Positions 1,085 to 51,513 of a DNA stretch of 64,000 bases are shown here, piece after piece (the first letter of the stretch is position 1; each line of letters begins with the position of its first letter). The position numbers were made by a program, and so were the translations under genes. The stretch is from Candidatus Dojkabacteria bacterium (GTDB taxonomy: Bacteria; Patescibacteriota; Dojkabacteria; GCA-002793355): the NCBI GenBank assembly GCA_030583685.1, contig CP129470.1:479007-543006 (forward strand), written 5' to 3'. The notes under the pieces were generated by a model. It did not search any database. It worked only from the letters and a program-made list of their open reading frames with translations, and was not told the DNA's origin.

Positions 1085-1173
1085 GGAGAGATGGCCGAGT
1101 GGCTGAAGGCGACGGTTTGCTAAACCGTTATACCCTTTTTTGGGTATCGAGGGTTCGAATCCCTCTCTCTCCG
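1085..1173 (+). tRNA. tRNA-Ser (anticodon GCU), class II with a long variable arm.
   Basis: Acceptor GGAGAGA/TCTCTCC. Anticodon stem ACGGT/ACCGT with loop TTGCTAA (anticodon GCT). Long variable arm. T-arm GAGGG-TTCGAAT-CCCTC. Discriminator G. No encoded CCA. Confidence 0.85.
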
Positions 1174-15915: not shown

Positions 15916-18900
15916 CTATTTTTCAATCGTAACCGAGAGTTTTGTTTTCTCTGGGCCAACATCGCCACTGTACGTTGCCGTTTCTGATAGGCCTTGCGTT
16001 ATGGTAAGTTTCGTGAGTAAGGTCGCTTTCTTCAGCTGCTCTTGGTACTTTTCAACAACAGAAGAAAGCGTGGTATCTTCCGTTCCCAGTGACACTGTCA
16101 CGTGCTGGCCAAGTTCTAATTGTGCCTGTTTTCTTGCTGCTTGAATTGCTCTGGTAATTTCTCGCACCAATCCCTGTTCTGCAAGTTCTGGGGTAATTTT
16201 TATATCTAAACCGACTGAATACTGCTGCTCCTGTTTCACTTTGAGCGAATCGGATTCAGTGAGTGACGCAACAAAGCGAGCTGTTTGAACGTTTAGTTCG
16301 TCTGCAATAAGCGTGTTGTAATCAGTTCCAAGATCATTTTCTGATGTATAAGATACAGAGGAAAGAGGCTGTTTGAGAGGAATACCTTGTTCAACCCGAA
16401 TACTTTGCCCAAGTGATACAATTTTTCTTGTCTTCTCCATAGTTTCAAGTAACTTGATTTCCTCTTGAGTGAGTTCAGAAACTGTTGGAAAGTTCTCCAA
16501 ATGAACAGATTCTTTTTGTTCATCTTCTGGGAGTGCTTTTTTCAGCTCTTGGTGGAGGTATTCAGTAATGAAAGGAATGATTGGCGCAAATGCTTTTGTT
16601 ACTAAAAGTAACACCGCAAACAAGGTATTGAGTGCATCTCCATCACCTGAAACAAAACGGTCTCGGGAGCGTCGAATATACCAAGTTGAGATGTCATCAA
16701 TGAGCGGTTTCAACTCGGCAATCGACTTGGGGATGAGATAGGCGTCAAGATTTTTTTGAACTGACAATATCGCCGACGTTGCTCTTGTTAATACCCAGGT
16801 ATCAAGTAATTGTGATGGTTTCCAGGTCTTGTCGTAGGAGAACCCGTGTTGATTCGCGTAAAGGGTGAAGTACTTAAACGTGTTCATAAGTGGCAACAGA
16901 ATCTCCTTTGCTGGGGCACCAATTGCATCTTCGGATACATTCAAATCTTCTCCAATTGGCAAGACGCTTCCCGCGATGTAGAGTCGGAATGAGTCCCCCC
17001 CATGCTTTTCGATTGTTCCGCGTGGGTCTGGATAATTTCCAAGGCTTTTACTCATCTTTCGACCATCAGTTCCATTGATTGTTCCCGTACAGACGACATT
17101 TTTAAACGCATTCGTTCCAAACAATATGGTTGAAACAACGTGCATGACATTAAACCAAGCGCGAGTTTGCCCAACATATTCGGTGATAAAGTCTCCAGGG
17201 AAATTTTGTTCGAATTTTTCCTTATTCTCAAAGGGATAGTGGAATTGGGCAAAAGGCATCGAAGCAGATTCAAGCCAGCAATCGACCACCTCTGGAACAC
17301 GCTTCATCATTCCTGTCTCACATTCTGAGCAAGAGTAGGTGTGCTCATCAATATATGGACGATGTAAATTAGTCACTTTTTTACCCGACTTTTCTTCGAT
17401 TTCTGCGATTGACCCAAGGACATCGCGGTGATCACATGCGTCACATTCCCAGATAGGGAGCGGAGTTGCCCAATAGCGTGTTCTCGAAATTCCCCAATCA
17501 GGGAAAGTTTTGATAGCGTCTTCAAATCTTCCGTGCTTAATATGCTCAGGAATCCAGTTGATATTCTCATTGTTTTTGTACAGTTGGTCTTTGACTGCTT
17601 GAATGTTGACATACCAAGAATCCTGCGCTTTGTACACGAGTGGGGTGCTACAGCGATAGCAAACGGGGTAGCTATGTGTGATTCGTTCTTCTTTCCAAAG
17701 AAGCCCTCGTTCTTTGAGAGCAGCAGAAATTGTAGGGTCTGCTTGTTTGAAATAGATGCCCGCATAGTCAGTGACTTCGGGGATAAATTTTCCTTCCTCA
17801 TCGATAGTCTCGTGCATTGAAAGGCCGATGGTTTTTCCAAGTGCCGTATCGTCTTCTCCAAATCCTGGAGCCATGTGGATAACGCCTGTTCCATCAGATG
17901 TACTAACGAAATCGGCAGCATAAATACGAAAATCTTTCTCACCGGCAGGGAAATAGGAGAAAAGTGGCGCATAAGTATTTCCCACAAGCTCCTTTCCCAG
18001 GTAGGTGTCTTCGATTCGATACTCTTTTCCTTCGAGAACCTGTTCAATGAGATCTTCTGCGAGAATGAGATACTCACCGTCAACAAGACACGTTGCATAG
18101 GTTGCTTTTTCGTCAACCACAAGGGCTGCGTTTGCAGGGAGTGTCCATGGCGTTGTGGTCCATGCGAGAACTGACACAGGAGGCTTGGTGATTGAGGGCT
18201 CTCCGTGAGGAATTTGGCGTGGTTCCTGGGACAACACGTCTTTAAGCGTGTTCTTTGTCGGAATATGAATATTGTCCCAGGGGATGTCTTCGGGTTTTAC
18301 CCAATTAAGTTCAGAATCCATATCTCCCTCCGTATCGACGACACGTGGTGTTCCCGAAACCTTTACTTTAAAGTGATGTGTTTTAAAAAGGCGCCCTTCA
18401 AAAATATCTATATTAAAGCCGTAATAGGTGAGTTCCGTAACCTCACAATCAATCTCTTCTTTAACTTCCCGTCTGACGGTGTTTTCAAGATTTTTCTCAT
18501 CAACGTCTTCATATTTTCCGCCAACAATTCCCATGACTTGGGCTCGGCCTTCTTTGATTCTGCGGATCATCAGAATTTCGCCTTTCTCGTTTTCAACGAC
18601 AACACCGGCACCAACTCCGGTTTTATAATAGTTCACAGGGAATTTTACGAAGACAGACGGATCTTCTAGCTCCCGGTACGAATTATCCATGGCAATTTCA
18701 AAGTTCGAGAGAGGCGTTCCACAACGAGTGCAGTATAACGAGACACGCTTTCCTTTATAAACCAATTCCTTTTCGTAAAATTGTTTAAAAACCCAGATAA
18801 CTGATTCCATGTAATTGAGGTCCATGGTTCGATACGGTTTACTCATGTCTACCCAGCGTGCGATACGGTCGATGTACCATTCCCACTCACCTGACACATC

Positions 18901-19290
18901 CGAAACATAGGTTTCACAAGCATCAATAAAGGCTTGTATGCCAACTTTATTTTCAATATCTCGGCGGTTTTTTGTATTAAATTGTCGCTCAACTTTTTCT
19001 TCAACGGGAATACCGTGACAATCCCAACCCCATACTCGTTCTACGCGTTTGCCACGCATCGTGTGATAGCGAGGAACAATATCTTTTAACACACTGGCGA
19101 GTAGGTGGCCATAATGGGGAAGTCCCGTCACAAAAGGAGGTCCGTCATAAAAAACAAAATGATTTTTTTCAGGTCGTTGCTCAATTGACTTCTCAAAAAT
19201 TCGATTCTTTTTCCAAGTTTCTAAGATTGGTTGTTCGACATCGTGATAAAACGAGCGAATATTTGGTGGTGAGAAGTGTGTTTTTGCCAT
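15916..19290 (-). CDS. ileS: Isoleucyl-tRNA synthetase with an internal Nudix-like insertion.
   Basis: HIGH motif PHYGHLL. KMSKS. WTTTPWTLPAN CP1 editing-domain signature. 1124 aa. Residues ~220-365 form an extra Nudix-like domain. Confidence 0.95.
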   Translation of the reverse strand: MAKTHFSPPNIRSFYHDVEQPILETWKKNRIFEKSIEQRPEKNHFVFYDGPPFVTGLPHYGHLLASVLKDIVPRYHTMRGKRVERVWGWDCHGIPVEEKVERQFNTKNRRDIENKVGIQAFIDACETYVSDVSGEWEWYIDRIARWVDMSKPYRTMDLNYMESVIWVFKQFYEKELVYKGKRVSLYCTRCGTPLSNFEIAMDNSYRELEDPSVFVKFPVNYYKTGVGAGVVVENEKGEILMIRRIKEGRAQVMGIVGGKYEDVDEKNLENTVRREVKEEIDCEVTELTYYGFNIDIFEGRLFKTHHFKVKVSGTPRVVDTEGDMDSELNWVKPEDIPWDNIHIPTKNTLKDVLSQEPRQIPHGEPSITKPPVSVLAWTTTPWTLPANAALVVDEKATYATCLVDGEYLILAEDLIEQVLEGKEYRIEDTYLGKELVGNTYAPLFSYFPAGEKDFRIYAADFVSTSDGTGVIHMAPGFGEDDTALGKTIGLSMHETIDEEGKFIPEVTDYAGIYFKQADPTISAALKERGLLWKEERITHSYPVCYRCSTPLVYKAQDSWYVNIQAVKDQLYKNNENINWIPEHIKHGRFEDAIKTFPDWGISRTRYWATPLPIWECDACDHRDVLGSIAEIEEKSGKKVTNLHRPYIDEHTYSCSECETGMMKRVPEVVDCWLESASMPFAQFHYPFENKEKFEQNFPGDFITEYVGQTRAWFNVMHVVSTILFGTNAFKNVVCTGTINGTDGRKMSKSLGNYPDPRGTIEKHGGDSFRLYIAGSVLPIGEDLNVSEDAIGAPAKEILLPLMNTFKYFTLYANQHGFSYDKTWKPSQLLDTWVLTRATSAILSVQKNLDAYLIPKSIAELKPLIDDISTWYIRRSRDRFVSGDGDALNTLFAVLLLVTKAFAPIIPFITEYLHQELKKALPEDEQKESVHLENFPTVSELTQEEIKLLETMEKTRKIVSLGQSIRVEQGIPLKQPLSSVSYTSENDLGTDYNTLIADELNVQTARFVASLTESDSLKVKQEQQYSVGLDIKITPELAEQGLVREITRAIQAARKQAQLELGQHVTVSLGTEDTTLSSVVEKYQEQLKKATLLTKLTITQGLSETATYSGDVGPEKTKLSVTIEK

Positions 19291-19343: not shown

Positions 19344-21164
19344 ATGACGTTTTCTCAAGTGACAGCACTCTTTTCCGCAATCGAACAAACACCAAAACGA
19401 TTGGAAATGCAGGAATTACTTCGTGCTTTTTATGCAAAGAGTGATCCTCGCAACGCAGCAATTGCAACGTATTTATTGATTGGGAGAATTGTTCCCGAAT
19501 TTGTCGCAGTCGAGTTCCAACTTTCAGATAAAAGCTTGCGAGCGGTGGTTGAGCGATTACTTTCTCGAGATATTCGTGAGGATCTCAGCTCTCTGGGAGA
19601 TGTTGGTTCAGTCTGGGAAAAGTATGGAGAAAGCGTTCCCACGTCAGGAGAACTTTTGGAAATTTATGGAAAGCTTTGGGAGATTTCACAAACAACAGGA
19701 ACTGGCTCCCAGCAGAAAAAACAGCAGTTGCTCGAGGAATTGCTCAAACAGAACGATACAATCACGGGAAAATATCTGTTACGAATAATCAATGGAAAGT
19801 TGCGGTTAGGTGCAAGCGAGAGAACGGTTTTGGAGGCACTCGGTAAGTTGTCGGGGCAGAATCTTCAAGAACTAAAACAGCTTTTTGCCAACACCAGCGA
19901 TATTGGACATACGGTCTTTGTGACGTTACAGTATGGTGCCGATGCCTTGTCTCATGGAAGCTTTACTCCCGGTGTCCCTATCGCTGCGAAACTTGTTGAG
20001 CGAGAGGATTCAATAGAAGCAATTTACGAGAGAATTCCAGAACCAATTCTTGAGCCAAAATATGATGGTTTACGATTGCAACTACACATAACATCAAATG
20101 AAACAGTGACGTATCCAGAAAGAATTTGGGCAGAATATCAGGAACGATATAGTCGAGTTTCTGCTTCAGAAGAAATGACGCTGTTTAAGGTTGAATCACC
20201 GACGGCTGAGGAATATAGAGTGTTTTTGTATTCGCGTAATTTAGAGGACATGAGTGCAATGTTTCCAGAAGTAACGAGTGCGGCGAAAAAGCTGCCTGAA
20301 CAGTATGAAAAGAAGTTTGGTGTCAGACCATCATCGCTGGTCTTGGATGGAGAAGTCATAGGATACAACGACATTATTCAGGAATATCTTCCGTTTCAGC
20401 AGACGATGACACGTAAGCGAAAGCATGGGGTTGCCGGGGCTGCTTCCGAGGTGCCGGTAAAAGTATTTGTGTTTGATTTTCTCTTGAAAGACCACGAGTC
20501 CTATCTGGATAAACCGCTGCGAGAGAGAAAACAGGAACTCTCCTTTCTTGATGAGCACACTGAAATTCAATCCGTTATAGTCAAAACACCGTTACATACG
20601 GGACTTACTGTCCAGCAAGCTGAAGAGCAATTTTTAACCTATGTGTCTGAAGGACTGGAGGGCGTTATTTTTAAGGAACTGAACTCGATATATACACCGG
20701 GGACAAGAAACTTTGACTGGCTGAAGTACAAAAAGGCGATGAAGAAAGACTTGGCTGATACGGTTGATGTTGTCCTACTGGGCTATTATCGCGGGGAAGG
20801 AAAGTTAGCGCAGTTTGGAATAGGGGCCTTACTGGCGGGAGTTTACGATCCTGAGACCGACACCTACACGACAGTAACGAAAATTGGTACGGGAGTGACC
20901 CATGAACAGTGGCAACAGATTAAAACTGCCTGTGATGCGGTTAAGTCAGAGAAAATGCTCGATACCGTTGAAATTCCAAAAGCATTATTACCCGATGTTC
21001 TCCTTATCCCAGAACTCGTTGTTGAAGTGGAGGCTGATGAAATTACCAAGAGCCCGCTTCATAGCTCGGGCTATGCATTGCGTTTTCCGCGATTCAAGCG
21101 TTTCCGCGAAAAACGCGCCAATCAAGCTACGACAAAACAGGAGCTTGTGACGCTCTGTAAATGA
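19344..21164 (+). CDS. ATP-dependent DNA ligase (archaeal/eukaryal LigI-type).
   Basis: Adenylation motif I EPKYDGLRLQLH (KxDG). OB-fold region. N-terminal DNA-binding domain. 606 aa. Extended -10 TGTATAAT at 19331-19338. Confidence 0.85.
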   Translation: MTFSQVTALFSAIEQTPKRLEMQELLRAFYAKSDPRNAAIATYLLIGRIVPEFVAVEFQLSDKSLRAVVERLLSRDIREDLSSLGDVGSVWEKYGESVPTSGELLEIYGKLWEISQTTGTGSQQKKQQLLEELLKQNDTITGKYLLRIINGKLRLGASERTVLEALGKLSGQNLQELKQLFANTSDIGHTVFVTLQYGADALSHGSFTPGVPIAAKLVEREDSIEAIYERIPEPILEPKYDGLRLQLHITSNETVTYPERIWAEYQERYSRVSASEEMTLFKVESPTAEEYRVFLYSRNLEDMSAMFPEVTSAAKKLPEQYEKKFGVRPSSLVLDGEVIGYNDIIQEYLPFQQTMTRKRKHGVAGAASEVPVKVFVFDFLLKDHESYLDKPLRERKQELSFLDEHTEIQSVIVKTPLHTGLTVQQAEEQFLTYVSEGLEGVIFKELNSIYTPGTRNFDWLKYKKAMKKDLADTVDVVLLGYYRGEGKLAQFGIGALLAGVYDPETDTYTTVTKIGTGVTHEQWQQIKTACDAVKSEKMLDTVEIPKALLPDVLLIPELVVEVEADEITKSPLHSSGYALRFPRFKRFREKRANQATTKQELVTLCK

Positions 21165-29941: not shown

Positions 29942-30649
29942 TTAAAACCCATCGGCGATTCCGCAATCTTCGTTGAAGGTGAGGTCTTGCTGTTGTTGAT
30001 AGTCTGCAATTGGCTTTAATTCAAACGTGTCGTAGCGATCTTTGTGTTGTTTTAGTTCTTCTGCTGTTGCCCAGAAGTTCCTTTGATAAGGGGTTTCTTC
30101 AATCAGGTTGCCAGATATTCCCGTAACTAAGTGACGATAAAAGATAACATCTTGAACGGTTTCTTCTTCACGGGTACGTATTTTTCGGAAGATTGAAAGG
30201 AGCTTCACTGACGTAGCGGTTAATCCAGATTCTTCATACAGCTCGCGAAGTGAGGCATCTACAAGTGTTTCTCCAAAGCGAATTTTTCCTGTAATAAGTC
30301 CGATTTTTCCAAAATAGGGATGACGAAGGCGTTTGTTAACGAGATATTCATCTTTTCCGTCTTCACGTGTTCGTGCAACGACCAAAAGTACAGAACTTTT
30401 GGGTTGTTTCTCAACGATGTCAACGGTATCGTCCATGAGGTTTCCGTAATCTTTTCCTTGATCGGAAAGTGAATATCCTGCGTCTGACTTGTTAATAAAG
30501 CCAATATCAAGAAGCTTCTGTAAGTGATAATTCATGTGCTCGCTTTCAAGACCTGCAATCAATAACTGATTGAAGCGAAGAGGTTCACTCGCGACGATCA
30601 ATTTTTTGAGAAGGTCTTTTTGATAATAATGTAGTTTTATTGTTTCCAT
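29942..30649 (-). CDS. Nudix hydrolase with an N-terminal winged-helix domain.
   Basis: Perfect Nudix box GKIRFGETLVDASLRELYEESGL (Gx5Ex7REUxEExGU). N-terminal HTH-like ~70 aa. Confidence 0.75.
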   Translation of the reverse strand: METIKLHYYQKDLLKKLIVASEPLRFNQLLIAGLESEHMNYHLQKLLDIGFINKSDAGYSLSDQGKDYGNLMDDTVDIVEKQPKSSVLLVVARTREDGKDEYLVNKRLRHPYFGKIGLITGKIRFGETLVDASLRELYEESGLTATSVKLLSIFRKIRTREEETVQDVIFYRHLVTGISGNLIEETPYQRNFWATAEELKQHKDRYDTFELKPIADYQQQQDLTFNEDCGIADGF

Positions 30650-30762
30650 ACGGTATTGTTACCTATTTACCGCAGAAATCAACTGAAAAGAATTTTAGTT
30701 GTGAGCATATGCAGAAAAGTGCCTTGTTTGCTCTCAAGGCGCGAAAGCATTATAATTCCCCT

Positions 30763-32565
30763 ATGGAACGAACAATTTCTTCAGGTCTTGCAGCACTCGT
30801 TGGTCAACAAGCGAGAGTGGAAGGCTGGTATCACAATCTACGAGAACTTGGTAAGGTCGGCTTTTTGGTGCTTCGTGATCGAGATGGACTTGTCCAAGTG
30901 GTTATTGACAAGAAAGAGACAATAAAAGAACTAGCAAAACTTCAGCCGGGAACAGTTATTCGAGCTATTGGAACGGTTAAAGAAACAACCGCAACAGATA
31001 TTGGCGTCGAATTGGTTTCTCCTGAAATCGAAGTGCTCGTACCAATTACAGAAGTGAGTCCTGTCTCCTATAACAAGAAATCTCTTGATGTGAATATCGA
31101 TACAGAACTTGATTTTCGGCCGTTAGTGCTGAGAAATCTCAAGAAACAGGCAATATTCAAAGTGCAAGCAAAGATTCTTCAAGCGTTTGCCGATTCCTTA
31201 CGAAATCAAGGATTTATGGAATTTCGTACTCCAATTTTGATGCATGCACCTTCAGAAAGCGGTGCGAGTGTCTTTGAGGTGAATTATTTCGAGGGAAAGG
31301 CATATTTGGCGCAATCTCCGCAGGTGTACAAGCAGATTATGGTTGGCGTATTTGAGCGAGCATTTACCATAACGCCTGTTTTTCGTGCAGAAAAGCACAA
31401 TACGACGCGTCACATTATGGAATTAACGCAAATGGATGCAGAAATGGGATTCATCGAAAGCTATCACGAAATTATGGCAGTTGCTGAAAAGACAATAAGA
31501 GATATTATTGCTACCGTTGTCGCGGAATATGCACAGGTATTTCAAGAATATGGAGTTGCCTTGCCACAAGTACCAGAAAAACCATTTCCAAAAATAAAAG
31601 TAAAGGAAGCACTCGCTGTTATTGAAGCACGAACAGGGAAAAGTGCTGTCAGAGAAGAGTTAGATCTCGACCCGGAGGATGAACGAGAAATGAGTAAATG
31701 GGCCCTTGAAGAGCATGGATCTGACTTCCTTTGGGTTATCAACTTTAAAGCAAATAAGAATTTTTACACCTGGGATGATCCACAAAATGCTGATGAATCA
31801 CTCTGTTTTGATTTAGAGTTCCGCGGATTAGAAATGCTTTCGGGAACGCATCGTATTCACTTGCATGAGCAACTTCTTGAGCGGTTTAAGAAGGAAGGGT
31901 TGACAGAAGAACATTATGAGCATTATTTTCAAGCATTTAAGTACGGCATGCCTTCTGAAGGTGGGTTTTCTTTTGGACTTGAGCGGCTCACGATGAAACT
32001 ATTTGAATTGAAGAATATTCGTGAAGCAACCCTCTTCCCCGCAGACTTAAAGAGAATTGCAGGAGCAAATAGAATTAAAGAAAAAGTCGTTGGCGAGCAT
32101 GCCGTTGTCGAGAAAATTAAGAAATTGTTGGACTCACGCGCGATTAAGTATCACTTTGAGGAACATGAAGCGGTACGAACCAGTGAAGAAGCCGCCGCAT
32201 TACGGGGGACTTCGCTTTCTAGCGGTGCTAAAGCGTTGATTCTTGTGGGAAAAAAGACAGGAAATCACGCTATGGTGGTAATTCCAGGCGATAAGAAACT
32301 TGCGCTTTCGGCGGTAACAGAAAAAATTGGCGAAAAAATGGAATTTGAAAAACCAGAGACAATTCTCGCTGAGTATGGGATTAAAGTGGGGGGAGTCCCT
32401 CCTTTTGGGAATCTTCTCGGAATGAGACTGTTAATGGATACCGGTGTTGCTAAAAATTCACAGATTTCCTTTAATGCAGGCAAGCAAACGTGTTCCATTC
32501 ACATGTCAGGGAAAGATTTAGCAGAAGTAACTGACGCAGAAGTTGGGGAATTTGCACAAAGGTAG
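30763..32565 (+). CDS. aspS: Archaeal-type class IIb Asp(Asn)-tRNA synthetase fused to a C-terminal ProX/YbaK-like deacylase domain.
   Basis: OB anticodon-binding N-terminus. Motif-2 region FRTPIL...LAQSPQVYKQ. Motif 3 GGFSFGLERLTM...FP. C-terminal ~170 aa with GAKALILVG...GGVPPFG (YbaK/ProX). TATAAT at 30751-30756 precedes the ATG at 30763. Confidence 0.8.
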   Translation: MERTISSGLAALVGQQARVEGWYHNLRELGKVGFLVLRDRDGLVQVVIDKKETIKELAKLQPGTVIRAIGTVKETTATDIGVELVSPEIEVLVPITEVSPVSYNKKSLDVNIDTELDFRPLVLRNLKKQAIFKVQAKILQAFADSLRNQGFMEFRTPILMHAPSESGASVFEVNYFEGKAYLAQSPQVYKQIMVGVFERAFTITPVFRAEKHNTTRHIMELTQMDAEMGFIESYHEIMAVAEKTIRDIIATVVAEYAQVFQEYGVALPQVPEKPFPKIKVKEALAVIEARTGKSAVREELDLDPEDEREMSKWALEEHGSDFLWVINFKANKNFYTWDDPQNADESLCFDLEFRGLEMLSGTHRIHLHEQLLERFKKEGLTEEHYEHYFQAFKYGMPSEGGFSFGLERLTMKLFELKNIREATLFPADLKRIAGANRIKEKVVGEHAVVEKIKKLLDSRAIKYHFEEHEAVRTSEEAAALRGTSLSSGAKALILVGKKTGNHAMVVIPGDKKLALSAVTEKIGEKMEFEKPETILAEYGIKVGGVPPFGNLLGMRLLMDTGVAKNSQISFNAGKQTCSIHMSGKDLAEVTDAEVGEFAQR

Positions 32566-35671: not shown

Positions 35672-37732
35672 ATGCTCATGCGTTTTCAACTTGCGTCAGA
35701 CTACAAACCACTCGGCGATCAACCTGCGGCAATTGAAAAATTGGTTGCTGGAGTAAAAAATGATCAAAGAGCACAAGTACTGCTTGGTGTCACCGGAAGT
35801 GGAAAGACGTTTACGGTCGCAAATGTCATTCAGCAAATTCAGAAGCCCACTCTCATTATTTCTCATAACAAGACGCTTGCAGCACAGCTGTATCAGGAGT
35901 TTAAAGAGTTTTTTCCCAAAAATGCGGTGCAATATTTCGTCAGTTACTATGATTATTACCAACCAGAAGCATACATTCCGCAACGAGATTTGTACATCGA
36001 AAAAGATGCGGATATCAATGAAGAGATCGATAAACTCCGTCTTGCAGCGTCAACTGCGTTAATGACGCGCGAGGATGTCATTGTTGTTGCGTCAGTTTCG
36101 GCAATATACAACTTAGGTTCACCTGAGACATACAGAAAAGCGATGGCGTTGATTGAGATTGGAAAAGGTTCTGGGCCACAAAAATTACAAGAACAACTGG
36201 TAAATCTTTATTATGAGCGTAACGATGTTGATTTTAAGCGAGGGACATTCCGACTTAGAGGTAACGCTCTTGATATTCATATTTCGTATGCGGAACTTGG
36301 AGTTCGAGTTATCTTTTCTGGCGATGTCGTGAGTACTGTCGAGCTTTTTAACCCAATTGACGGTAGTGTTGTGTCTGACTATTCATACTACATTGATCTC
36401 TTGCTCGAAGTCGAAGGGGAGACCATCAAAAAAGTGGTGCTGTACCCTGCAAAGCATTATGTCATGGATGAAGCGGTACAAGAGGAGGCGATTAAACGGA
36501 TTAATGCTGATGTTGAGGCTCGAGTAAAAGAATTTGAGAAACAAGGAAAAATGATTGAGGCACACCGACTCAAACAAAAAGTTCAGTACGATATGGAGAT
36601 GATTCGAGAAATTGGATATTGCAAGGGAATTGAAAATTATTCTTACTACTTTGACGGCAGAAAAATTGGGGAACCTCCGTATTCTTTAATGGATTACTTT
36701 CCAAAAGATCATCTGTTGATTATCGATGAATCCCACATGACGATTCCCCAGGTTCGTGGCATGTTTAATGGTGATCAGGCGCGGAAAGAGAATCTTATAG
36801 AGTATGGCTTCCGATTGCCAACAGCACGTGAAAATCGACCACTTCGCTTTCCAGAGTTTGAAGAGAGAATGGGGAATACGATATTTCTTTCCGCAACTCC
36901 CGAAGAGTACGAAATGCAAAAGGCTGGAAAAGAAAACGTCGCAGAGCAATTAATTCGTCCAACCGGAATTATCGACCCAATTGTCGAAGTTCGCCCTGCT
37001 TCAAACCAAGTACAAGATTTAGTCGGGGAAATTAAAGTGGTGCTCGAGAAAAAAGAACGTGTTTTGGTAACCACTATGACCAAAAGAATGGCAGAGGATT
37101 TATCAGAATATTTAAAAGAACTTGGGATTCGGGTTACTTACCTGCACTCGGATATCGACACACTTGAGAGAACTGATATTTTGGCTGATCTTCGCGCAGG
37201 AAATTACGATGTTCTGGTCGGAATTAACTTACTGCGAGAAGGACTCGACTTACCAGAGGTTTCTCTTGTTGCGATTTTAGATGCCGACAAAGAAGGTTTC
37301 CTTCGTTCGCGAACCAGTTTGATTCAGACCATGGGAAGAGCTGCGCGACATATTGAAGGCCGTGTTATTTTATATGCCGAAAAAAAGACAAGGAGCATGC
37401 AAGAAGCATTGTTTGAGGTTGAACGTAGACGTGCAATTCAGCTGGAGTATAACAAAGAACACGGCATAACTCCGCAGTCGATTCACAAAGCGATTCGCCA
37501 AAGAATTCTTCCGAAACAAGTTGAGGAGTCGGATGAAGCAAGAGATCAGAAAATTCACACCATGCTTGGCAAAGATATTGAAGTTATGGTTGCCTCGTAT
37601 CGAACAATGCCAAAGAAAGAGCAGAAATCAACGATAGATTGGCTCACTAAGGAAATGAAGAAAGAAGCGCTCGCGTTGAACTTCGAAAAAGCAATCGAAT
37701 TGCGAGAATTACTTAAGGGGTTGCGAGGATGA
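35672..37732 (+). CDS. uvrB: Excinuclease ABC subunit B.
   Basis: GVTGSGKTF Walker A. Helicase motifs. C-terminal UvrB/C interaction motif (EFEKAIELRE). TATAAT abuts the first ATG, so the true start may be the ATG at 35678. Confidence 0.95.
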   Translation: MLMRFQLASDYKPLGDQPAAIEKLVAGVKNDQRAQVLLGVTGSGKTFTVANVIQQIQKPTLIISHNKTLAAQLYQEFKEFFPKNAVQYFVSYYDYYQPEAYIPQRDLYIEKDADINEEIDKLRLAASTALMTREDVIVVASVSAIYNLGSPETYRKAMALIEIGKGSGPQKLQEQLVNLYYERNDVDFKRGTFRLRGNALDIHISYAELGVRVIFSGDVVSTVELFNPIDGSVVSDYSYYIDLLLEVEGETIKKVVLYPAKHYVMDEAVQEEAIKRINADVEARVKEFEKQGKMIEAHRLKQKVQYDMEMIREIGYCKGIENYSYYFDGRKIGEPPYSLMDYFPKDHLLIIDESHMTIPQVRGMFNGDQARKENLIEYGFRLPTARENRPLRFPEFEERMGNTIFLSATPEEYEMQKAGKENVAEQLIRPTGIIDPIVEVRPASNQVQDLVGEIKVVLEKKERVLVTTMTKRMAEDLSEYLKELGIRVTYLHSDIDTLERTDILADLRAGNYDVLVGINLLREGLDLPEVSLVAILDADKEGFLRSRTSLIQTMGRAARHIEGRVILYAEKKTRSMQEALFEVERRRAIQLEYNKEHGITPQSIHKAIRQRILPKQVEESDEARDQKIHTMLGKDIEVMVASYRTMPKKEQKSTIDWLTKEMKKEALALNFEKAIELRELLKGLRG

Positions 37733-41700: not shown

Positions 41701-44700
41701 ATGGACTTTCTGTCGATTCGCGGTGCGCGCGAGAACAATCTCAAGAATGTAAGTGTTGATTTACCCAAGAATAAACTGATTGTTTTTACCGGACTTTCGG
41801 GTTCAGGAAAGAGTTCCTTGGCGATGGATACCATCTATGCAGAAGGGCAACGAAAATATGTAGAAAGTTTGTCTGCGTATGCTCGGCAATTTCTCGGTGA
41901 GCTCAGAAAGCCTGATGTCGATAAAATTGAAGGGTTGTCTCCGTCAATTGCGATCGATCAGAAGACGGTGTCGCATAATCCTCGCTCGACTGTTGGAACA
42001 ATTACCGAAATTTATGATTATCTCCGTTTATTGTATGCACGGGTTGGAACGGCTCATTGTCCACAATGTGGAGCGGTTTTGACCTCGCAGACCATTGATC
42101 AGGTTGTGGATGGATTGTTAACGAAAATCAAGAAAGAGTACAAAACGGATAAAATTGTTCAGAAATTTGGCTTTCGGTTTATGATTACCGCCGTACCGAT
42201 TTCTGGTCGAAAGGGTGAGTACGAACAGGTTTTCATGAACTTGCGGAAGCAGGGATGGAACTTAGTGCGGGTCGATGGTGAGTACATCGATTTAAAACTA
42301 ATGTTACCGCAACTTGATAAATATAAGCAGCATGATATTGAAGTAGTCATTGACACCTTAAGTGTGTCGCGGCATGCTTTTGACGATGAGACGTTTTTGA
42401 AAGAGTTACGCTCTCGAATTTTTCAATCGGTTGAGGCGGCTTTGAAAATTCAACCAACCTTTGTCCGAATTATTGAAATTCGAGACCCGCAACCGGGTAT
42501 GCCTGCCAAACCCGACGTGACCTTGAACCATGATTACAGTGTGAGCAAAAGTTGTAAGCAGTGTGGTATTTCTGTTCCGGATTTTGAGCCTCGAGACTTT
42601 TCATTTAACTCTCCGCATGGAGCGTGTTCAACGTGTGACGGACTTGGGGTTATTAAGAAAATTTCGACGGAGGGAATAATTGATGGTAAGCGTTCAATTC
42701 TCGCAGGTGGCATTATGCCGTATGCAAAAATGCTTGAACGAGATTCTTATTTCCGCAGGTTGCTTGAAATTGTTTGTGATGAGCATACTATTTCAATCCA
42801 CACACCAGTGAGTATGTTAACGGAAGGGAAATTGAATACCATCCTCTATGGAACTGGCGATAAAAAATACAAAGTTACGTATTTCTCTAGCCAAGATGGT
42901 TCTGAGCGGTCCTTGTTCACAAAATATGAAGGGATTATTCCGAATCTTGAGCGTCGTTACAAAGAAACGAATTCTGATTTTATTCGAACAGAAATTGAAA
43001 AGTTTATGACGACGGTAACGTGTCCAGATTGTCAGGGAAAGCGATTAAAAGATATGGTGCTTGCAGTTACTATCGCGGGTAAGAATATTGCTGAAGTTTG
43101 CGATATGACGATTAAGGATTTCACCGCAGACGTTACTGCGTTTCCGAAAAACCTTGATGAGAAATCAATGCTGATTGCGCAGCCGGTCATTAAAGAAATC
43201 TTATTACGAAGTCAGTTCTTGTTGGATGTTGGCCTTGAGTATTTGACTGTCAGTCGAACGGCAACGACCCTTTCAGGAGGAGAAGCGCAGCGAATTCGCT
43301 TAGCAAGTCAAATTGGGACAGGATTGTCGGGGGTTATTTATGTGTTAGACGAACCTTCAATCGGACTTCATGCACGAGATCAACATCGATTGATTACGAC
43401 ACTCAAACAACTGCGGGATTTAGGCAATACAGTTATTGTTGTTGAACATGATCGAGACACGATGATGAATGCAGATGTACTAGTTGATTTTGGTAAAGGT
43501 GCGGGAAATAACGGTGGAGAAATCGTTGCAATCGGTACTCCTGAAGAAGTCATGAAGAATGTAAACTCCGTAACGGGGCCATATCTTTCAGGAAAGAAAA
43601 ACATTGCAAAAGAAGTTTCCAAAATCGTGGAAGCAAATAAAGACAAGAACAAAAAATTGACCTTGGCTCAGGTGCAACAACAACGAAATCGCGCTGCTGA
43701 TCGATACATCGAGTTGTCAGGCGCAAAAACGCACAACTTGAAAGATGTTACGGTGAAGTTCCCGTTGGGTAAATTTGTTTGTGTCACCGGTGTTTCTGGT
43801 TCAGGGAAAAGCTCCTTGGTGGTTGAAACACTTCTCCCTGCACTCAAAAAAACCTTAGGACTTCGAGTTGATAGCCCAGATACTGAATACAAAAATATCT
43901 ATATTTCCGATGTCGTAGACAAAATGTTGTACATTGATCAATCACCTATTGGTCGAACGCCTCGAAGTAATCCAGCAACCTATACAAAGGTGTTTGATGA
44001 TATCAGAGAATTATTTGCGCAAACAAAAGATTCAAAAGTCCGCGGCTATACGGCGAGTCGTTTTAGTTTCAATTTGAAAGGTGGACGATGCGAAGCGTGT
44101 AAAGGAGAGGGCAAAATCAAAATTGAGATGCAGTTCATGCCAGATGTGTATATCAATTGTGACGTTTGTCACGGGAAACGATATGTGTCAGAAGTATTGG
44201 ATGTTTTGTACAAAGGCAAGAATGTCTCCGAAGTACTGAATATGTCTGTTGACGAAGCTGCCGGTTTCTTTTCAGAAATTTCCTCAATTCGCGAGAAGTT
44301 TGAAGTGTTGCAGCAGGTAGGACTTGGTTATTTAAAAATTGGAGAACCTGCCCCGATGTTGTCAGGTGGAGAGGCACAGCGAGTTAAGTTGTCTGCAGAA
44401 CTTGGTCGTCGCTCAACGGGTAAGACCATTTATATTCTTGATGAACCGACAACGGGGTTGCATTTCGCAGATATCGAAAAGTTGGTTGCAGTACTCAAAA
44501 CCCTCGTTGCAGGCGGGAATAGCGTGTTTGTTATTGAGCACAACCTTGATTTTATCGCAGAAGCTGATCATTTGATTGATCTTGGTCCTGAAGGGGGAAG
44601 TGGCGGTGGACAGATTATTGCCACAGGAAGTGTTGCGGAAATCCGTAAAAATCCAAAAAGCTGGACCGGAAGGATGATGAAAGAGGAATTACATAGGTAA
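41701..44700 (+). CDS. uvrA: Excinuclease ABC subunit A.
   Basis: Two ABC modules ([22 protein letters not shown]). ABC signatures LSGGEAQR. Zinc-finger Cys clusters. 999 aa. TGTATAAT at 41686-41693. Confidence 0.95.
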
Positions 44701-45014: not shown

Positions 45015-46343
45015 ATGAACTCCGAAAAGTTGGTGAAAAAGATTTCAAATTTACCTAATACTCCAGGTTGTTATCTGTATTTCAACGACAAAAAAGAAGT
45101 TATTTATGTTGGAAAAGCAAAAAATATCAAGAATCGTGTTTCTAGTTACTTTGTCGCGACCTACAAAGGACCAAAGACCGAAGCGTTAGTATCGCAAATT
45201 GCCGATTTTGAAGTCATTCAAGTTCGCTCTGAAATTGAAGCATTTCTTTTGGAAGCAGCATTAATCAAGCAATATAGACCACACTATAACATTTCGTTGA
45301 AAGACGACAAATCGTATAAATATATTGTTGCTCAGGATTATGATATTACCTATGAGGGGAAAAAATATACCTTCACGAAAATTTTTGGAGTTCATGGTAA
45401 ATTGTTAAAACGCGCAAGGTTTTATGGTCCGTTTCCTGATGGCTCCTTAGTGAATGCCGTACTTCGGCAATTACGAAAAATTTATCCTCATTGTGAATAT
45501 GGAAAAATAAAAATCCAACAGTCTCTGAAAAGTGGGAGAGCCTGTTTATACGCGCATCTTGGGTTGTGTACAGGAGCTTGCGGTGATATCACTCAATATA
45601 CACAAAACAGAAAAAATGTGAATGAGTTGGAAAAGTTTCTTGAGAAAGGGTATTCACGGGCAATTGAAGATTTGGAAAAAAGAATGAGACTGTTAGCAGG
45701 AGAAGAGCAATTCGAGGCAGCGAAAGAAATTCGCGATACTCTCGGGAAATTGCAACAGTTAGAAACTGCAAGTATTTTACCTGATCAGTATGTAGATAAT
45801 CCAAATCTCATGGAGGATATTTATCGAGAAAGAGCGCAGCGAATTGCAGCGTTCCTGCAGATTTCTTCAGCGGAAAGGATTGAGTGCTACGATATCTCGA
45901 ACATGATGGAACAATGGACGGTTGGTTCGATGGTCGTGAGTGAGAACGGAAAACTTGAGAAGTCGCAATATCGAAAATTTCGTATTAAATACACGAAAGG
46001 AATTTCAGATTTTGGCATGATGAAAGAGATTTTGTCACGAAGGATACACAAAGCAGAATGGAAACATCCGACTCTCCTCCTTATTGATGGCGGGAAGGGG
46101 CAGGTGAGTGCAGTGCTGGATGCAATAAAAGGTACCGCATTTGAAAAGATTCCGGTAATAGGTATTTTCAAGCCGCATGACTATTTTCTACAACAGCGTG
46201 CTGGTAAATGGAAAATCACAAAAGTTCAAAAAAACGATATAGGTTATCTGCATCTCAGAGAGCTTCGAGATGAAGCACATCGCTTTGCAAATCGTTATCG
46301 AAAAGTGAGAATGAAGAATGAAGGTGAACTCGCAAAAGCATAG
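45015..46343 (+). CDS. uvrC: Excinuclease ABC subunit C, short form lacking the C-terminal (HhH)2 domain.
   Basis: GIY-YIG (GCYLYFNDKKEVIYVGKAKNIKNRVSSYF). UvrBC motif EQFEAAKEIRD. RNaseH-like endonuclease domain (LLLIDGGKGQ). 442 aa. Confidence 0.8.
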   Translation: MNSEKLVKKISNLPNTPGCYLYFNDKKEVIYVGKAKNIKNRVSSYFVATYKGPKTEALVSQIADFEVIQVRSEIEAFLLEAALIKQYRPHYNISLKDDKSYKYIVAQDYDITYEGKKYTFTKIFGVHGKLLKRARFYGPFPDGSLVNAVLRQLRKIYPHCEYGKIKIQQSLKSGRACLYAHLGLCTGACGDITQYTQNRKNVNELEKFLEKGYSRAIEDLEKRMRLLAGEEQFEAAKEIRDTLGKLQQLETASILPDQYVDNPNLMEDIYRERAQRIAAFLQISSAERIECYDISNMMEQWTVGSMVVSENGKLEKSQYRKFRIKYTKGISDFGMMKEILSRRIHKAEWKHPTLLLIDGGKGQVSAVLDAIKGTAFEKIPVIGIFKPHDYFLQQRAGKWKITKVQKNDIGYLHLRELRDEAHRFANRYRKVRMKNEGELAKA

Positions 46344-50863: not shown

Positions 50864-50949
50864 AAGCAGTATGATAGCACAAAAAGGACAGTTCAGGTGA
50901 AGTTTGCGTTACTTTGTGCTATAATACACCTGTCTCGACCACACTTTCG

Positions 50950-51371
50950 GGGGTGATCGGCTTAGACGGTTGTTCGTTGAAAGAAGAAGCCAAGCGGGCT
51001 GATATCCCGTACTCCTATCAAAGCACATAAAGTGCCAAACAAACCCTTTCTGCAAAAATTGCTAACGCACTTAACAGCGTCGTTGCGGCTTTCAGCCGTC
51101 CCGCAGCTGCTTTGAACGTTATGCAAATTGCATAAGTCATTGCGACTTTCCTTAGTGTCCCTCCTTTGCCTGACAAGCGGACAATAAGGAGTAATAAAGT
51201 TCAGGCCGACGTATTCTCGAGCTCCTCTGTGAGAATACTGTTGTATACGTGAGGGCGAGTGTTACTTTTTTGCCTCGGTTTTAGGTGACACTTCGTATAT
51301 AATCAAGGCTGTCTTGGGAGAATCTTCTTTTAGAAAACAGCTGCACAGGGGTTCGATTCCCCTCACCTCCA
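50950..51371 (+). ncRNA. ssrA: tmRNA (ssrA).
   Basis: 5' GGGGGUGAUCGGCUUAGACGG. 3' T-arm GGGGUUCGAUUCCCC. Acceptor GGGGGUG/CACCUCC with a G3:U70 wobble (Ala identity). Discriminator A. Internal ORF with Ala-rich tag candidates. Extended -10 TGCTATAAT at 50917-50925. Confidence 0.85.
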
Positions 51372-51513
51372 TTTTGGAAATTTACGGTGCAACCGTAGAT
51401 TTTCAAAATAGAACAGAGAATCGAACCGTAGGTTCTCTTGCGAATTCCTTGCTTATGCGATTTTCGAATGAGCAATACAAAGCCCGATAAAGTTTCAATG
51501 TATCCGAAGTATT

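Follow-up and report, generated by a model that had tools for sequence, protein, structure and literature searches.

A Nudix domain nested in the CP1 editing domain of type-2 isoleucyl-tRNA synthetase from Candidatus Dojkabacteria

The isoleucyl-tRNA synthetase (IleRS) of an uncultivated Candidatus Dojkabacteria bacterium carries a Nudix domain in the first β-hairpin of its CP1 editing domain. We found it in a window of 64,000 nt (GCA_030583685.1, contig CP129470.1, positions 479,007-543,006 of the forward strand), to which all nucleotide positions below refer. The synthetase is encoded at 15916..19290 on the minus strand by a single ORF of 1124 aa. The whole insertion, made up of the Nudix domain and a return linker, spans aa 220-368 (18187..18633, minus strand), and the Nudix fold proper, taken from the Pfam envelope, covers aa 224-338 (18277..18621, minus strand). 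An earlier note, made from the letters of the window, had proposed a Nudix domain in the stretch that separates the KFPV strand from the WTTTPWTLP motif; sequence, fold, and comparison support this placement, and we are nearly certain that the insert is a genuine nested Nudix domain.

The host protein is a type-2 IleRS with intact synthetic (HYGH, KMSKS) and editing (TTT, His472, Asp481) motifs. The TIGR00392 ileS equivalog HMM scored 782.4 bits against a cutoff of 621.4 and matched two stretches with the insert between them. The HIGH-type motif consists of P58 and HYGH at aa 59-62 (H59-Y60-G61-H62), and KMSKS lies at aa 745-749; H59, K745, S747, and K748 do not vary in the IleRS alignments, and G61 and M746 vary little or not at all. 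The Thr-rich CP1 editing motif WTTTPWTLP occupies aa 377-385 (18136..18162, minus strand). Its residues W377, T378, T379, T380, P381, and W382, together with D481, are invariant in alignments A1 and A4 (22 and 50 homologues), and H472 of the editing site is invariant in A1 and nearly so in A4. We take the roles of these motifs to be those assigned in the literature on the E. coli and T. thermophilus IleRS. The full-length AF2 model (pLDDT 89.8, pTM 0.77) had P. megaterium IleRS2 as its top structural match (8C9D; Foldseek E = 3e-88, TMt 0.82, 30% identity), and 8C9D, 8C8V, and 8WND ranked above the type-1 structures 8C9E and 1QU2. With type-2 IleRS, the eukaryote-like, mupirocin-resistant type (P. 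megaterium IleRS2, 8C8U/8C8V/8C9D; yeast, 8WND), the window protein shares the overall fold, the HIGH-type and KMSKS motifs, a CP1 domain with WTTTPW, His, and Asp, an anticodon-binding domain, and DUF5915 at the C-terminus (PF19302, 63 bits). It differs in that these enzymes have a turn of 3-7 residues where the window protein has ~147 aa of Nudix domain and linker.

The boundaries of the insertion were taken from alignment A1 with the closest orthologues that lack it (P0009, P0010, and P0014; 70-73% identical to the window IleRS). The spacing from KFPV219 to A376-W377 is 156 residues in the window protein versus 9 ('V-GQEKTFIV') in P0009, with which P0010 and P0014 agree, giving a net insertion of ~147 aa. 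According to the alignments and the model, the insert is entered from CP1 strand β-1, SVFVKFPV (aa 212-219; 18634..18657, minus strand), which belongs to a continuous strand of aa 205-219 in the full-length model. A Y-x-K-T-G junction motif follows, with K223 and G225 invariant and Y221 and T224 nearly so. The return linker (aa 341-368; 18187..18270, minus strand) leads back into CP1 strand β-2; its length differs among homologues, and the confidence of the model is lower there (pLDDT 60-77). W377 lies 9 residues past the end of the insert. The earlier note had placed an insertion of ~140 aa at 18198-18633, only a few codons away from our limits. Its figure of ~20 residues at this site in canonical bacterial IleS was too generous, since the solved structures have 7 residues (T. 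thermophilus 1ILE, 213-221) or 3 (human IARS1, 214-218).

In the 1124-aa protein, Pfam tRNA-synt_1 matched aa 22-784 and NUDIX (PF00293) gave a separate match at aa 224-338 with 51.9 bits (E = 1e-13; gathering score 21.1). The insert alone scored 56.9 bits (E = 2.8e-15), and it has the α/β/α sandwich of the Nudix fold. The Nudix box, read directly from the sequence, lies at aa 258-282 (GKYEDVDEKNLENTVRREVKEEIDC; 18445..18519, minus strand) with the layout G258-GKYEDVDEKNLENTV-R274 E275 V K E278 E279 I D281 C282. Compared with the canonical box, the loop is two residues longer and the box glycine is replaced by D281, just as the earlier note had read it; the strict 23-residue consensus GX5EX7REUXEEXGU does not fit the window protein. 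Many genuine Nudix enzymes depart from this consensus. Aspartate, asparagine, or glutamine stands at the glycine position in the window protein and in the relatives P0003, P0004, P0022, and P0032, and two distant embedded proteins, P0030 and P0124, have boxes that match the consensus exactly. G257, G258, R274, E275, E278, and E279 are invariant both in alignment A2 (21 embedded and 9 free-standing Nudix domains; columns G41, G42, R58, E59, E62, and E63) and in alignment A3 (21 sequences). With no variation at the residues for metal binding and catalysis, the domain is probably catalytically active. The suggestion in the earlier note that it may be inactive fits poorly with GG, RE, and EE being invariant in 30 sequences and with the canonical boxes of the two relatives.

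Nudix domains within IleRS were found in at least 23 protein clusters. Inserts at the site described here (site A) occur in 8 GTDB species-level genomes, mostly of Candidatus Dojkabacteria, and the nested architecture recurs in independent NCBI, JGI, ENA, and Logan assemblies. Across 22 homologues, the identity of the insert correlates with that of the synthetase core (r = 0.92; for example, 0.66 versus 0.69 and 0.51 versus 0.50). Recent horizontal acquisition was assessed by base composition and rejected, as the insert is indistinguishable from the rest of the gene in GC (0.436 versus 0.436) and GC3 (0.42 versus 0.40). The insert is inherited vertically, and purifying selection acts on it about as strongly as on the core of the synthetase. 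It is absent from the close relatives P0009-15, P0025/26, and P0033. One locus without the insert (L010) and one with it (L011) have neighbors in common with the window, namely ligase, IleS, TrmB-like, Aminotran_5, SNase, MurJ, Fe-ADH, and FtsK genes. The presence of insert-less orthologues at the same syntenic locus points to an old gain followed by several clean losses, and these losses in close relatives indicate that the insert is dispensable for IleRS function.

Full-text literature searches returned no description of a Nudix domain within or fused to an aminoacyl-tRNA synthetase. As far as these searches reach, the claim of an undescribed architecture stands for the literature; the proteins themselves are already public with precomputed PF00293 matches. 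Their NCBI name is just 'class I tRNA ligase family protein', a downgrade by the NCBI pipeline that the Nudix insert explains. A curated precedent for an IleRS with an extra enzymatic domain is NCBIfam NF040702 (IleRS, N-acetyltransferase domain-containing). Its extra domain is a GNAT rather than a Nudix domain, and the window IleRS, at 284.7 bits against a cutoff of 1999, is no member; searches for relevant literature on IleRS and GNAT found none. In NadM-Nudix (NMN adenylyltransferase/ADP-ribose pyrophosphatase; 2QJO, 2QJT), the Nudix domain is fused end to end, whereas that of the window protein is nested, and the partner is an enzyme other than IleRS with no tRNA involved. The MutT/Nudix hydrolases 4DYW (Burkholderia pseudomallei), 4KYX (Rickettsia felis), and 1VC8 (T. 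thermophilus Ndx1 Ap6A hydrolase) are stand-alone proteins of 126-160 aa; the embedded clade differs from them by motifs of its own, the YxKTG junction, FEGRLFxTHH, and IPWxxxHIPTxN.

Sister IleRSs of the same lineage in Dojkabacteria/Patescibacteria (P0039, P0121, P0027/28, and P0124) likewise have hydrolases set into CP1 or into the region that binds Zn. In P0039, P0121, and P0027/28, a Nudix domain (PF00293, 45-47 bits) of another lineage occupies another CP1 site, ~30 aa past WTTTPWTLP (site B). With the site-A profile, these site-B domains scored only 16-30 bits, versus up to 82 bits for free-standing Nudix proteins, and they therefore represent an independent acquisition into the same CP1 domain. 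The notion of exactly one intact Nudix domain per IleRS was discarded, as both boxes of P0028, at site A and at site B, are intact, even though the site-B box of P0027 is destroyed (KIIKDN). P0124 combines NUDIX with His_Phos_1 (113.8 bits) and P0121 combines NUDIX with Ser_hydrolase; the window protein has neither of these additional domains. P0067 carries a site-B insert of ~190 aa, for which a by-eye guess of a CYTH-like domain was dropped when Pfam gave no support.

As our tentatively preferred explanation, a little short of an even chance, the window protein would be a bifunctional polypeptide in which an autonomous Nudix pyrophosphohydrolase, nested in the hairpin turn of CP1, clears by-products of the synthetase. 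Among 21 homologues, the net charge of the insert averages -5.3 (range -11 to +2), and this consistent acidity suggests that the substrate would be a small soluble nucleoside-diphosphate-X compound and not RNA. Best guesses are adenine dinucleoside polyphosphates (Ap4A/ApnN) or other by-products derived from ATP; synthetases of classes I and II make these when ATP reacts with the aminoacyl-adenylate bound to the enzyme. Scavenger and producer would in that case be physically joined and expressed together. The candidates of the earlier note, Ile-AMP and Ap4A-type side products, are likewise guesses. It is well established that aminoacyl-tRNA synthetases produce Ap4A (reviews: PMC10148737, PMC7705103). 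Against this guess, IleRS makes little Ap4A next to LysRS or PheRS. The structural neighbors of the Nudix domain include Ap4A/Ap6A hydrolases (1VC8 Ndx1, 26-27% identity; 4KTB; 9CXX); MutT, NUDT15, NudC, ADP-ribose pyrophosphatase, and RppH are also represented, and no type is clearly favored. ADP-ribose pyrophosphatases have a proline ~16 residues downstream of the Nudix box; this marker is absent from the window protein, in which positions +15 and +16 are F and E. ApnA hydrolases reportedly carry a tyrosine 16-18 residues downstream of the box, a marker ascribed to Dunn et al. 1999; it is likewise absent, as positions +16 to +18 after C282 read E-G-R within the conserved FEGR motif and tyrosines occur at +7 and +8. 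With both subfamily markers missing, we assign no substrate and claim no membership in the ApnA subfamily, although the domain could act in a similar way. An Ap4A-type substrate in particular is rather unlikely, even as the best guess.

Whether the Nudix domain is functionally coupled to the chemistry of IleRS is close to evenly balanced, with a slight lean against. We counted the two unrelated Nudix lineages in CP1 as a sign of a functional link to this domain, and the conserved Y-x-K-T-G junction suggests a putative fixed geometry. The heterogeneous inserts of related IleRSs count against coupling, as they fit a merely permissive scaffold. The main rival to by-product clearing builds on this point: the domain may be a housekeeping nucleotide-sanitizing or metabolite pyrophosphatase (MutT/YjhB-like) that works independently of IleRS. 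It would have been captured in a surface hairpin that tolerates insertions, within an essential gene that a tiny genome expresses constitutively. The same broad clade tolerates several unrelated inserts in several loops (P0124, P0121, P0067), clean losses occurred repeatedly with fully kept synteny (L010 versus L011), and among free-standing proteins the nearest kin are generic NUDIX proteins of Patescibacteria that carry the annotation 8-oxo-dGTP diphosphatase or YjhB. On the other hand, two unrelated Nudix lineages at two sites of one CP1 domain look non-random, the junction is conserved with K223 and G225 invariant, and the genome already has another Nudix gene (29942-30649 in the window).

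The isolation of the embedded clade also speaks against such an independent housekeeping enzyme. A profile built from the 21 embedded inserts (A3) was searched against 5.8 billion proteins. Its matches were short Nudix proteins alone, all at ≤35% identity, and did not include the long IleRS proteins, so that the search measures the distance to free-standing relatives and does not count how often the architecture occurs; this word-indexed search of 5.8 billion proteins yielded no free-standing member of the embedded clade above ~35% identity or 80 bits. An index-free search gave one free-standing relative at 41% identity (P0126). Two candidates for closer kin were rejected. The only strong word-indexed match to the insert, P0001 (157 aa), had been considered as a free-standing donor gene; it begins with IleS flank sequence (MDNSYKDLEDPSVFVKFPLNYY) and lies on a frameshift-ridden contig in which IleS is broken into three calls, and it is a fragment of IleS. 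A free-standing Nudix 1.4 kb from IleS at locus L006 shares only 29% identity with the insert and is thus a generic MutT-like protein rather than a paralogue. Taking both sides together, we consider the independent housekeeping enzyme rather unlikely.

It is improbable that the fold has been kept as an inert module, a nucleotide-binding regulatory or structural decoration of CP1. NrtR, AraR, and the C-terminal Nudix-like domain of MutY would be its analogues. The non-canonical boxes of the window protein and its nearest relatives, with two extra loop residues and D, N, or Q for glycine, would agree with such a module, and the KIIKDN box of P0027 shows that decay does occur in this setting. Against it stand the RE-x2-EE and GG residues, kept in 21 of 21 site-A inserts at identities down to 29%, and the canonical boxes of P0030 and P0124; moreover, aspartate and asparagine are probably tolerated turn residues at the glycine position. 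We give a similarly small chance to a broader reading, in which CP1 of Dojkabacteria/Patescibacteria IleRS would be an evolutionary docking platform for hydrolases that carry editing further than deacylation, and the Nudix domain would clear blocking or toxic pyrophosphate species at the enzyme. The modules in this reading are the two Nudix lineages at two sites, the histidine phosphatase, and the serine hydrolase; candidate substrates are tRNA CCA ends pyrophosphorylated by toxSAS-type toxins or adenylate-derived dinucleotides. An essential synthetase would then have repair or immunity built in.

About as doubtful is an RNA-directed role, in which the Nudix domain would strip a blocking pyrophosphate, 5' cap, or triphosphate from tRNA(Ile), for example by removing a toxSAS-type 3'-CCA pyrophosphorylation so that the tRNA can be charged again. 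The editing site binds the CCA end, and its Thr-rich motif begins a few residues downstream of the insert; all identified domains inserted in related IleRSs are hydrolases (Nudix, His-phosphatase, Ser hydrolase), and the RppH-type RNA pyrophosphohydrolase 3EES is among the structural neighbors. CCA pyrophosphorylation of tRNA and its enzymatic reversal do exist (10.1101/2021.04.30.441581; PMC11559606). However, the enzymes known to reverse it are SAH/HD-domain hydrolases, not Nudix proteins (10.1101/2021.04.30.441581). In addition, the acidity of the domain is unusual for an RNA-binding surface, no toxin context was seen at the locus, and there is no reason why IleRS alone should need such a repair. 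Finally, the possibility that the assembly is chimeric, or that IleS was wrongly called as one gene with a neighboring Nudix gene, as the 157-aa P0001 at first seemed to suggest, is refuted by the recurrence in independent assemblies (at least 23 clusters, four data sources, 8 GTDB species genomes, and a 99%-identical copy, WKZ23590.1, on an 888,748-bp NCBI contig), as well as by the IleS flank of the frameshifted P0001, the single ORF with the insert in frame at both ends, and the uniform base composition of the gene, and we give it practically no weight.

Few enzymes are as conserved as the aminoacyl-tRNA synthetases, and new catalytic domains nested in bacterial synthetases are, to our knowledge, rare. 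In this IleRS, a complete and, judging from its residues, apparently active nucleotide pyrophosphatase sits inside the proofreading domain of an essential translation enzyme, and it is conserved across a candidate phylum about as tightly as the synthetase itself. If the domain were only a passenger, it would mark a permissive CP1 insertion site that is useful for engineering. If it is coupled to the chemistry of IleRS, this would be the first synthetase with its own scavenger for adenylate-derived by-products or damaged tRNA ends, and it would offer a tractable in vitro system for the cellular cost of Ap4A-type side products.

The region under study lies within an isoleucyl-tRNA synthetase (IleRS) encoded by a single open reading frame of 1124 aa (window 15916-19290, minus strand). 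In Pfam, tRNA-synt_1 covers one stretch of this protein (aa 22-784), and Anticodon_1 and DUF5915 were matched as well. The NCBIfam model TIGR00392 (ileS) reached 782 bits against a cutoff of 621, its match being broken into two stretches by the insert. Among the homologues, HYGH, KMSKS, T378-T380, H472, and D481 are invariant or almost so, and nothing suggests a disabled synthetase or editing site. In the full-length AF2 model (pLDDT 89.8, pTM 0.77), the Nudix portion has a pLDDT of ~91-93; confidence drops, to 73-77, solely in the return linker (aa ~350-370). This model matched type-2 IleRSs best, namely 8C9D (IleRS2 of P. megaterium, E = 3e-88) and 8WND (yeast). The host enzyme is an otherwise normal type-2 IleRS with a Nudix domain nested in its editing domain, CP1.

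The insertion was delimited in an alignment of 22 related IleRSs, in which the nearest orthologues without insert are P0009, P0010, and P0014 (70-73% identity). The spacer between KFPV and AWTTTPW comprises 9 residues in P0009, with P0010 and P0014 aligned likewise, versus 156 in the window protein, corresponding to a net insertion of ~147 aa (aa 220-368; window 18187-18633, minus strand). The equivalent position in solved structures is a β-hairpin turn (residues 213-221 in T. thermophilus IleRS, 214-218 in human IARS1), which places the insert in the first hairpin of CP1 (site A). The Thr-rich editing motif WTTTPW follows closely, with W377 at 9 residues past the end of the insert. The GC content is 0.436 both in the insert and in the remaining gene, with a flat profile, and GC3 (0.42 vs 0.40) stays inside the gene's own range. 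We consider it practically excluded that the architecture is an artefact.

Within the tRNA-synt_1 envelope, Pfam NUDIX (PF00293) matched aa 224-338 with E = 1e-13 and 51.9 bits (gathering score, 21.1), and the excised insert (145 aa) alone scored 56.9 bits; NCBIfam gave only weak MutT-type matches. An AF2 model of aa 217-369, built from 21 embedded and 9 free-standing homologues, showed the strand and helix order expected for Nudix (pLDDT 88.3, pTM 0.84). All of the top 50 Foldseek matches in the PDB were Nudix hydrolases (probability 1.0, TM 0.6-0.73). These results bear out the Nudix domain in IleS proposed in the earlier note. The insert is a conserved domain of Nudix fold, and its catalytic residues are intact.

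A whole-protein search retrieved a 99% identical copy, P0002, whose 90% cluster includes WKZ23590.1 from a Candidatus Dojkabacteria bacterium (888,748-bp contig). In NCBI, WKZ23590.1 and MCX6807234.1, from the same or related clusters, are merely named "class I tRNA ligase family protein", probably owing to the nested domain. Precomputed PF00293 matches occur in at least 23 IleRS clusters (44-69% identity), among which IleRSs without insert are interspersed at 65-69% and 55-57% identity. Scanning GTDB species genomes for the insert motif yielded eight positives, five labelled Ca. Dojkabacteria and the others Saccharibacteria, "bacterium", and Patescibacteria group. Carriers are scattered over the clade in a neighbour-joining tree of the IleRS core, and the insert-less P0009-15, P0025/26, and P0033 are nested among them. 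The gene neighbourhoods of P0014 (without insert) and P0007 (with insert) match that of the window, sharing ATP-dependent DNA ligase, IleS, TrmB-like methyltransferase, Aminotran_5, SNase, MurJ, Fe-ADH, and FtsK; the two are orthologues separated by a clean domain indel. The ligase-IleS synteny is kept in genomes with and without the insert. By position and length, the putative ATP-dependent DNA ligase of 606 aa divergent from IleS (window 19344-21164, plus strand) corresponds to the ligase (DNA_ligase_A_N/M/C) adjoining IleS at one locus without (L010) and one with the insert (L011). Insert identity follows core identity across 22 homologues (r = 0.92) and almost equals it. A word-indexed profile search revealed no free-standing Nudix protein above ~35% identity or 80 bits to the embedded profile, on which an embedded fragment scores 192 bits, and the best five matches of an index-free search were all IleRS-embedded. 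In the simplest history, the domain was inserted once, long ago, was then inherited vertically under purifying selection, and was lost completely several times. On the ENA contig L001 (5198-7994), an orthologous Nudix-bearing IleS is broken into three gene calls beside a fragmentary ligase; the apparently free-standing Nudix P0001 is a spurious product of this frameshift-ridden contig.

Both constituents belong to well-known families. Among the closest analogues, type-2 IleRSs resemble the host but lack the insert, MutT-like enzymes resemble the insert but are free-standing, NadM-Nudix (PMC7824862; 2QJO/2QJT) is an end-to-end fusion, and the GNAT-containing IleRS of NCBIfam is an analogue with another additional domain. 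In full-text literature searches, no aminoacyl-tRNA synthetase described as containing or bearing a Nudix domain came up, in agreement with the earlier note. As public databases already contain the sequences along with precomputed Pfam matches, the architecture is undescribed, not unseen.

The window encodes a second synthetase with an additional hydrolase domain, an archaeal-type non-discriminating AspRS of 641 aa (30640-32565, plus strand; NF003483, 460 bits, cutoff 353) with an aminoacyl-tRNA deacylase domain of the YbaK/EbsC type at its C-terminus (aa 509-629; PF04073, 80.7 bits). Adjoining it in divergent orientation is a gene for a separate 235-aa Nudix protein (29942-30649, minus strand; NUDIX 38.7 bits, canonical box) with a winged-helix-like N-terminus (DUF7347, 27.1 bits, slightly under the 27.6 cutoff), so the embedded Nudix is not the only one of the genome. 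Homologues of UvrB (35672-37732), UvrA (41701-44700), and UvrC (45015-46343), all on the plus strand, lie within 11 kb. At gathering level, Rfam matched only a tmRNA (50949-51374, plus strand, 79 bits) and one long-arm tRNA (1085-1173, plus strand) in the window.

Sister IleRSs carry further nested domains. In P0039, P0121, and P0027/28, a Nudix domain (PF00293, 45-47 bits) sits ~30 residues past WTTTPWTLP (site B). On the site-A profile, these domains score 16-30 bits, lower than more than 200 free-standing Nudix proteins; judged by these scores, they are a second, unrelated lineage that was acquired independently. P0027 and P0028 contain both inserts, the site-B box being degenerate in the former (KIIKDN) and intact in the latter. 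P0124 bears His_Phos_1 (aa 642-819, 113.8 bits) and P0121 Ser_hydrolase (aa 663-823, 34.3 bits). The ~190-aa insert of P0067 (~aa 256-450) had no Pfam match, and a by-eye assignment as CYTH was not supported by the scan. That IleRS loops accept Nudix, His_Phos_1, Ser_hydrolase, and the P0067 insert indicates permissiveness and favours the view that the Nudix is an independent housekeeping enzyme merely carried along. The convergent recruitment of Nudix to CP1, however, favours functional coupling. We regard such hitch-hiking as possible but less probable than coupling.

The Nudix box of the window protein (GGKYEDVDEKNLENTVRREVKEEIDC) has, as read previously, a loop two residues above canonical length and Asp in place of the box Gly. 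By profile, motifs, and structure, each part belongs to its family, Nudix or IleRS, except that the box departs from the strict 23-residue consensus. The suggestion that the domain might be inactive is countered by the invariance of G257, G258, R274, E275, E278, and E279 in all 30 aligned Nudix sequences and by textbook GX5EX7REUXEEXGU boxes in the more distant embedded relatives P0030 and P0124. On these grounds the domain is probably active, and an inert module appears very improbable.

Sequence markers exist for the ApnA hydrolase and ADP-ribose pyrophosphatase subfamilies of Nudix enzymes. Their absence from the window Nudix, the functionally mixed structural neighbours of the insert, and the other Nudix gene in the genome all count against a specific substrate assignment. 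Because the insert is acidic throughout the homologues (mean net charge, -5.3), we infer a small soluble nucleotide as substrate; repair of tRNA ends appears, like an inert module, very improbable. Aminoacyl-tRNA synthetases make Ap4A (PMC10148737, PMC7705103), and the most plausible link between insert and host, which we favour tentatively, is that the nested Nudix domain would clear adenylate-derived by-products such as Ap4A made by its host synthetase.
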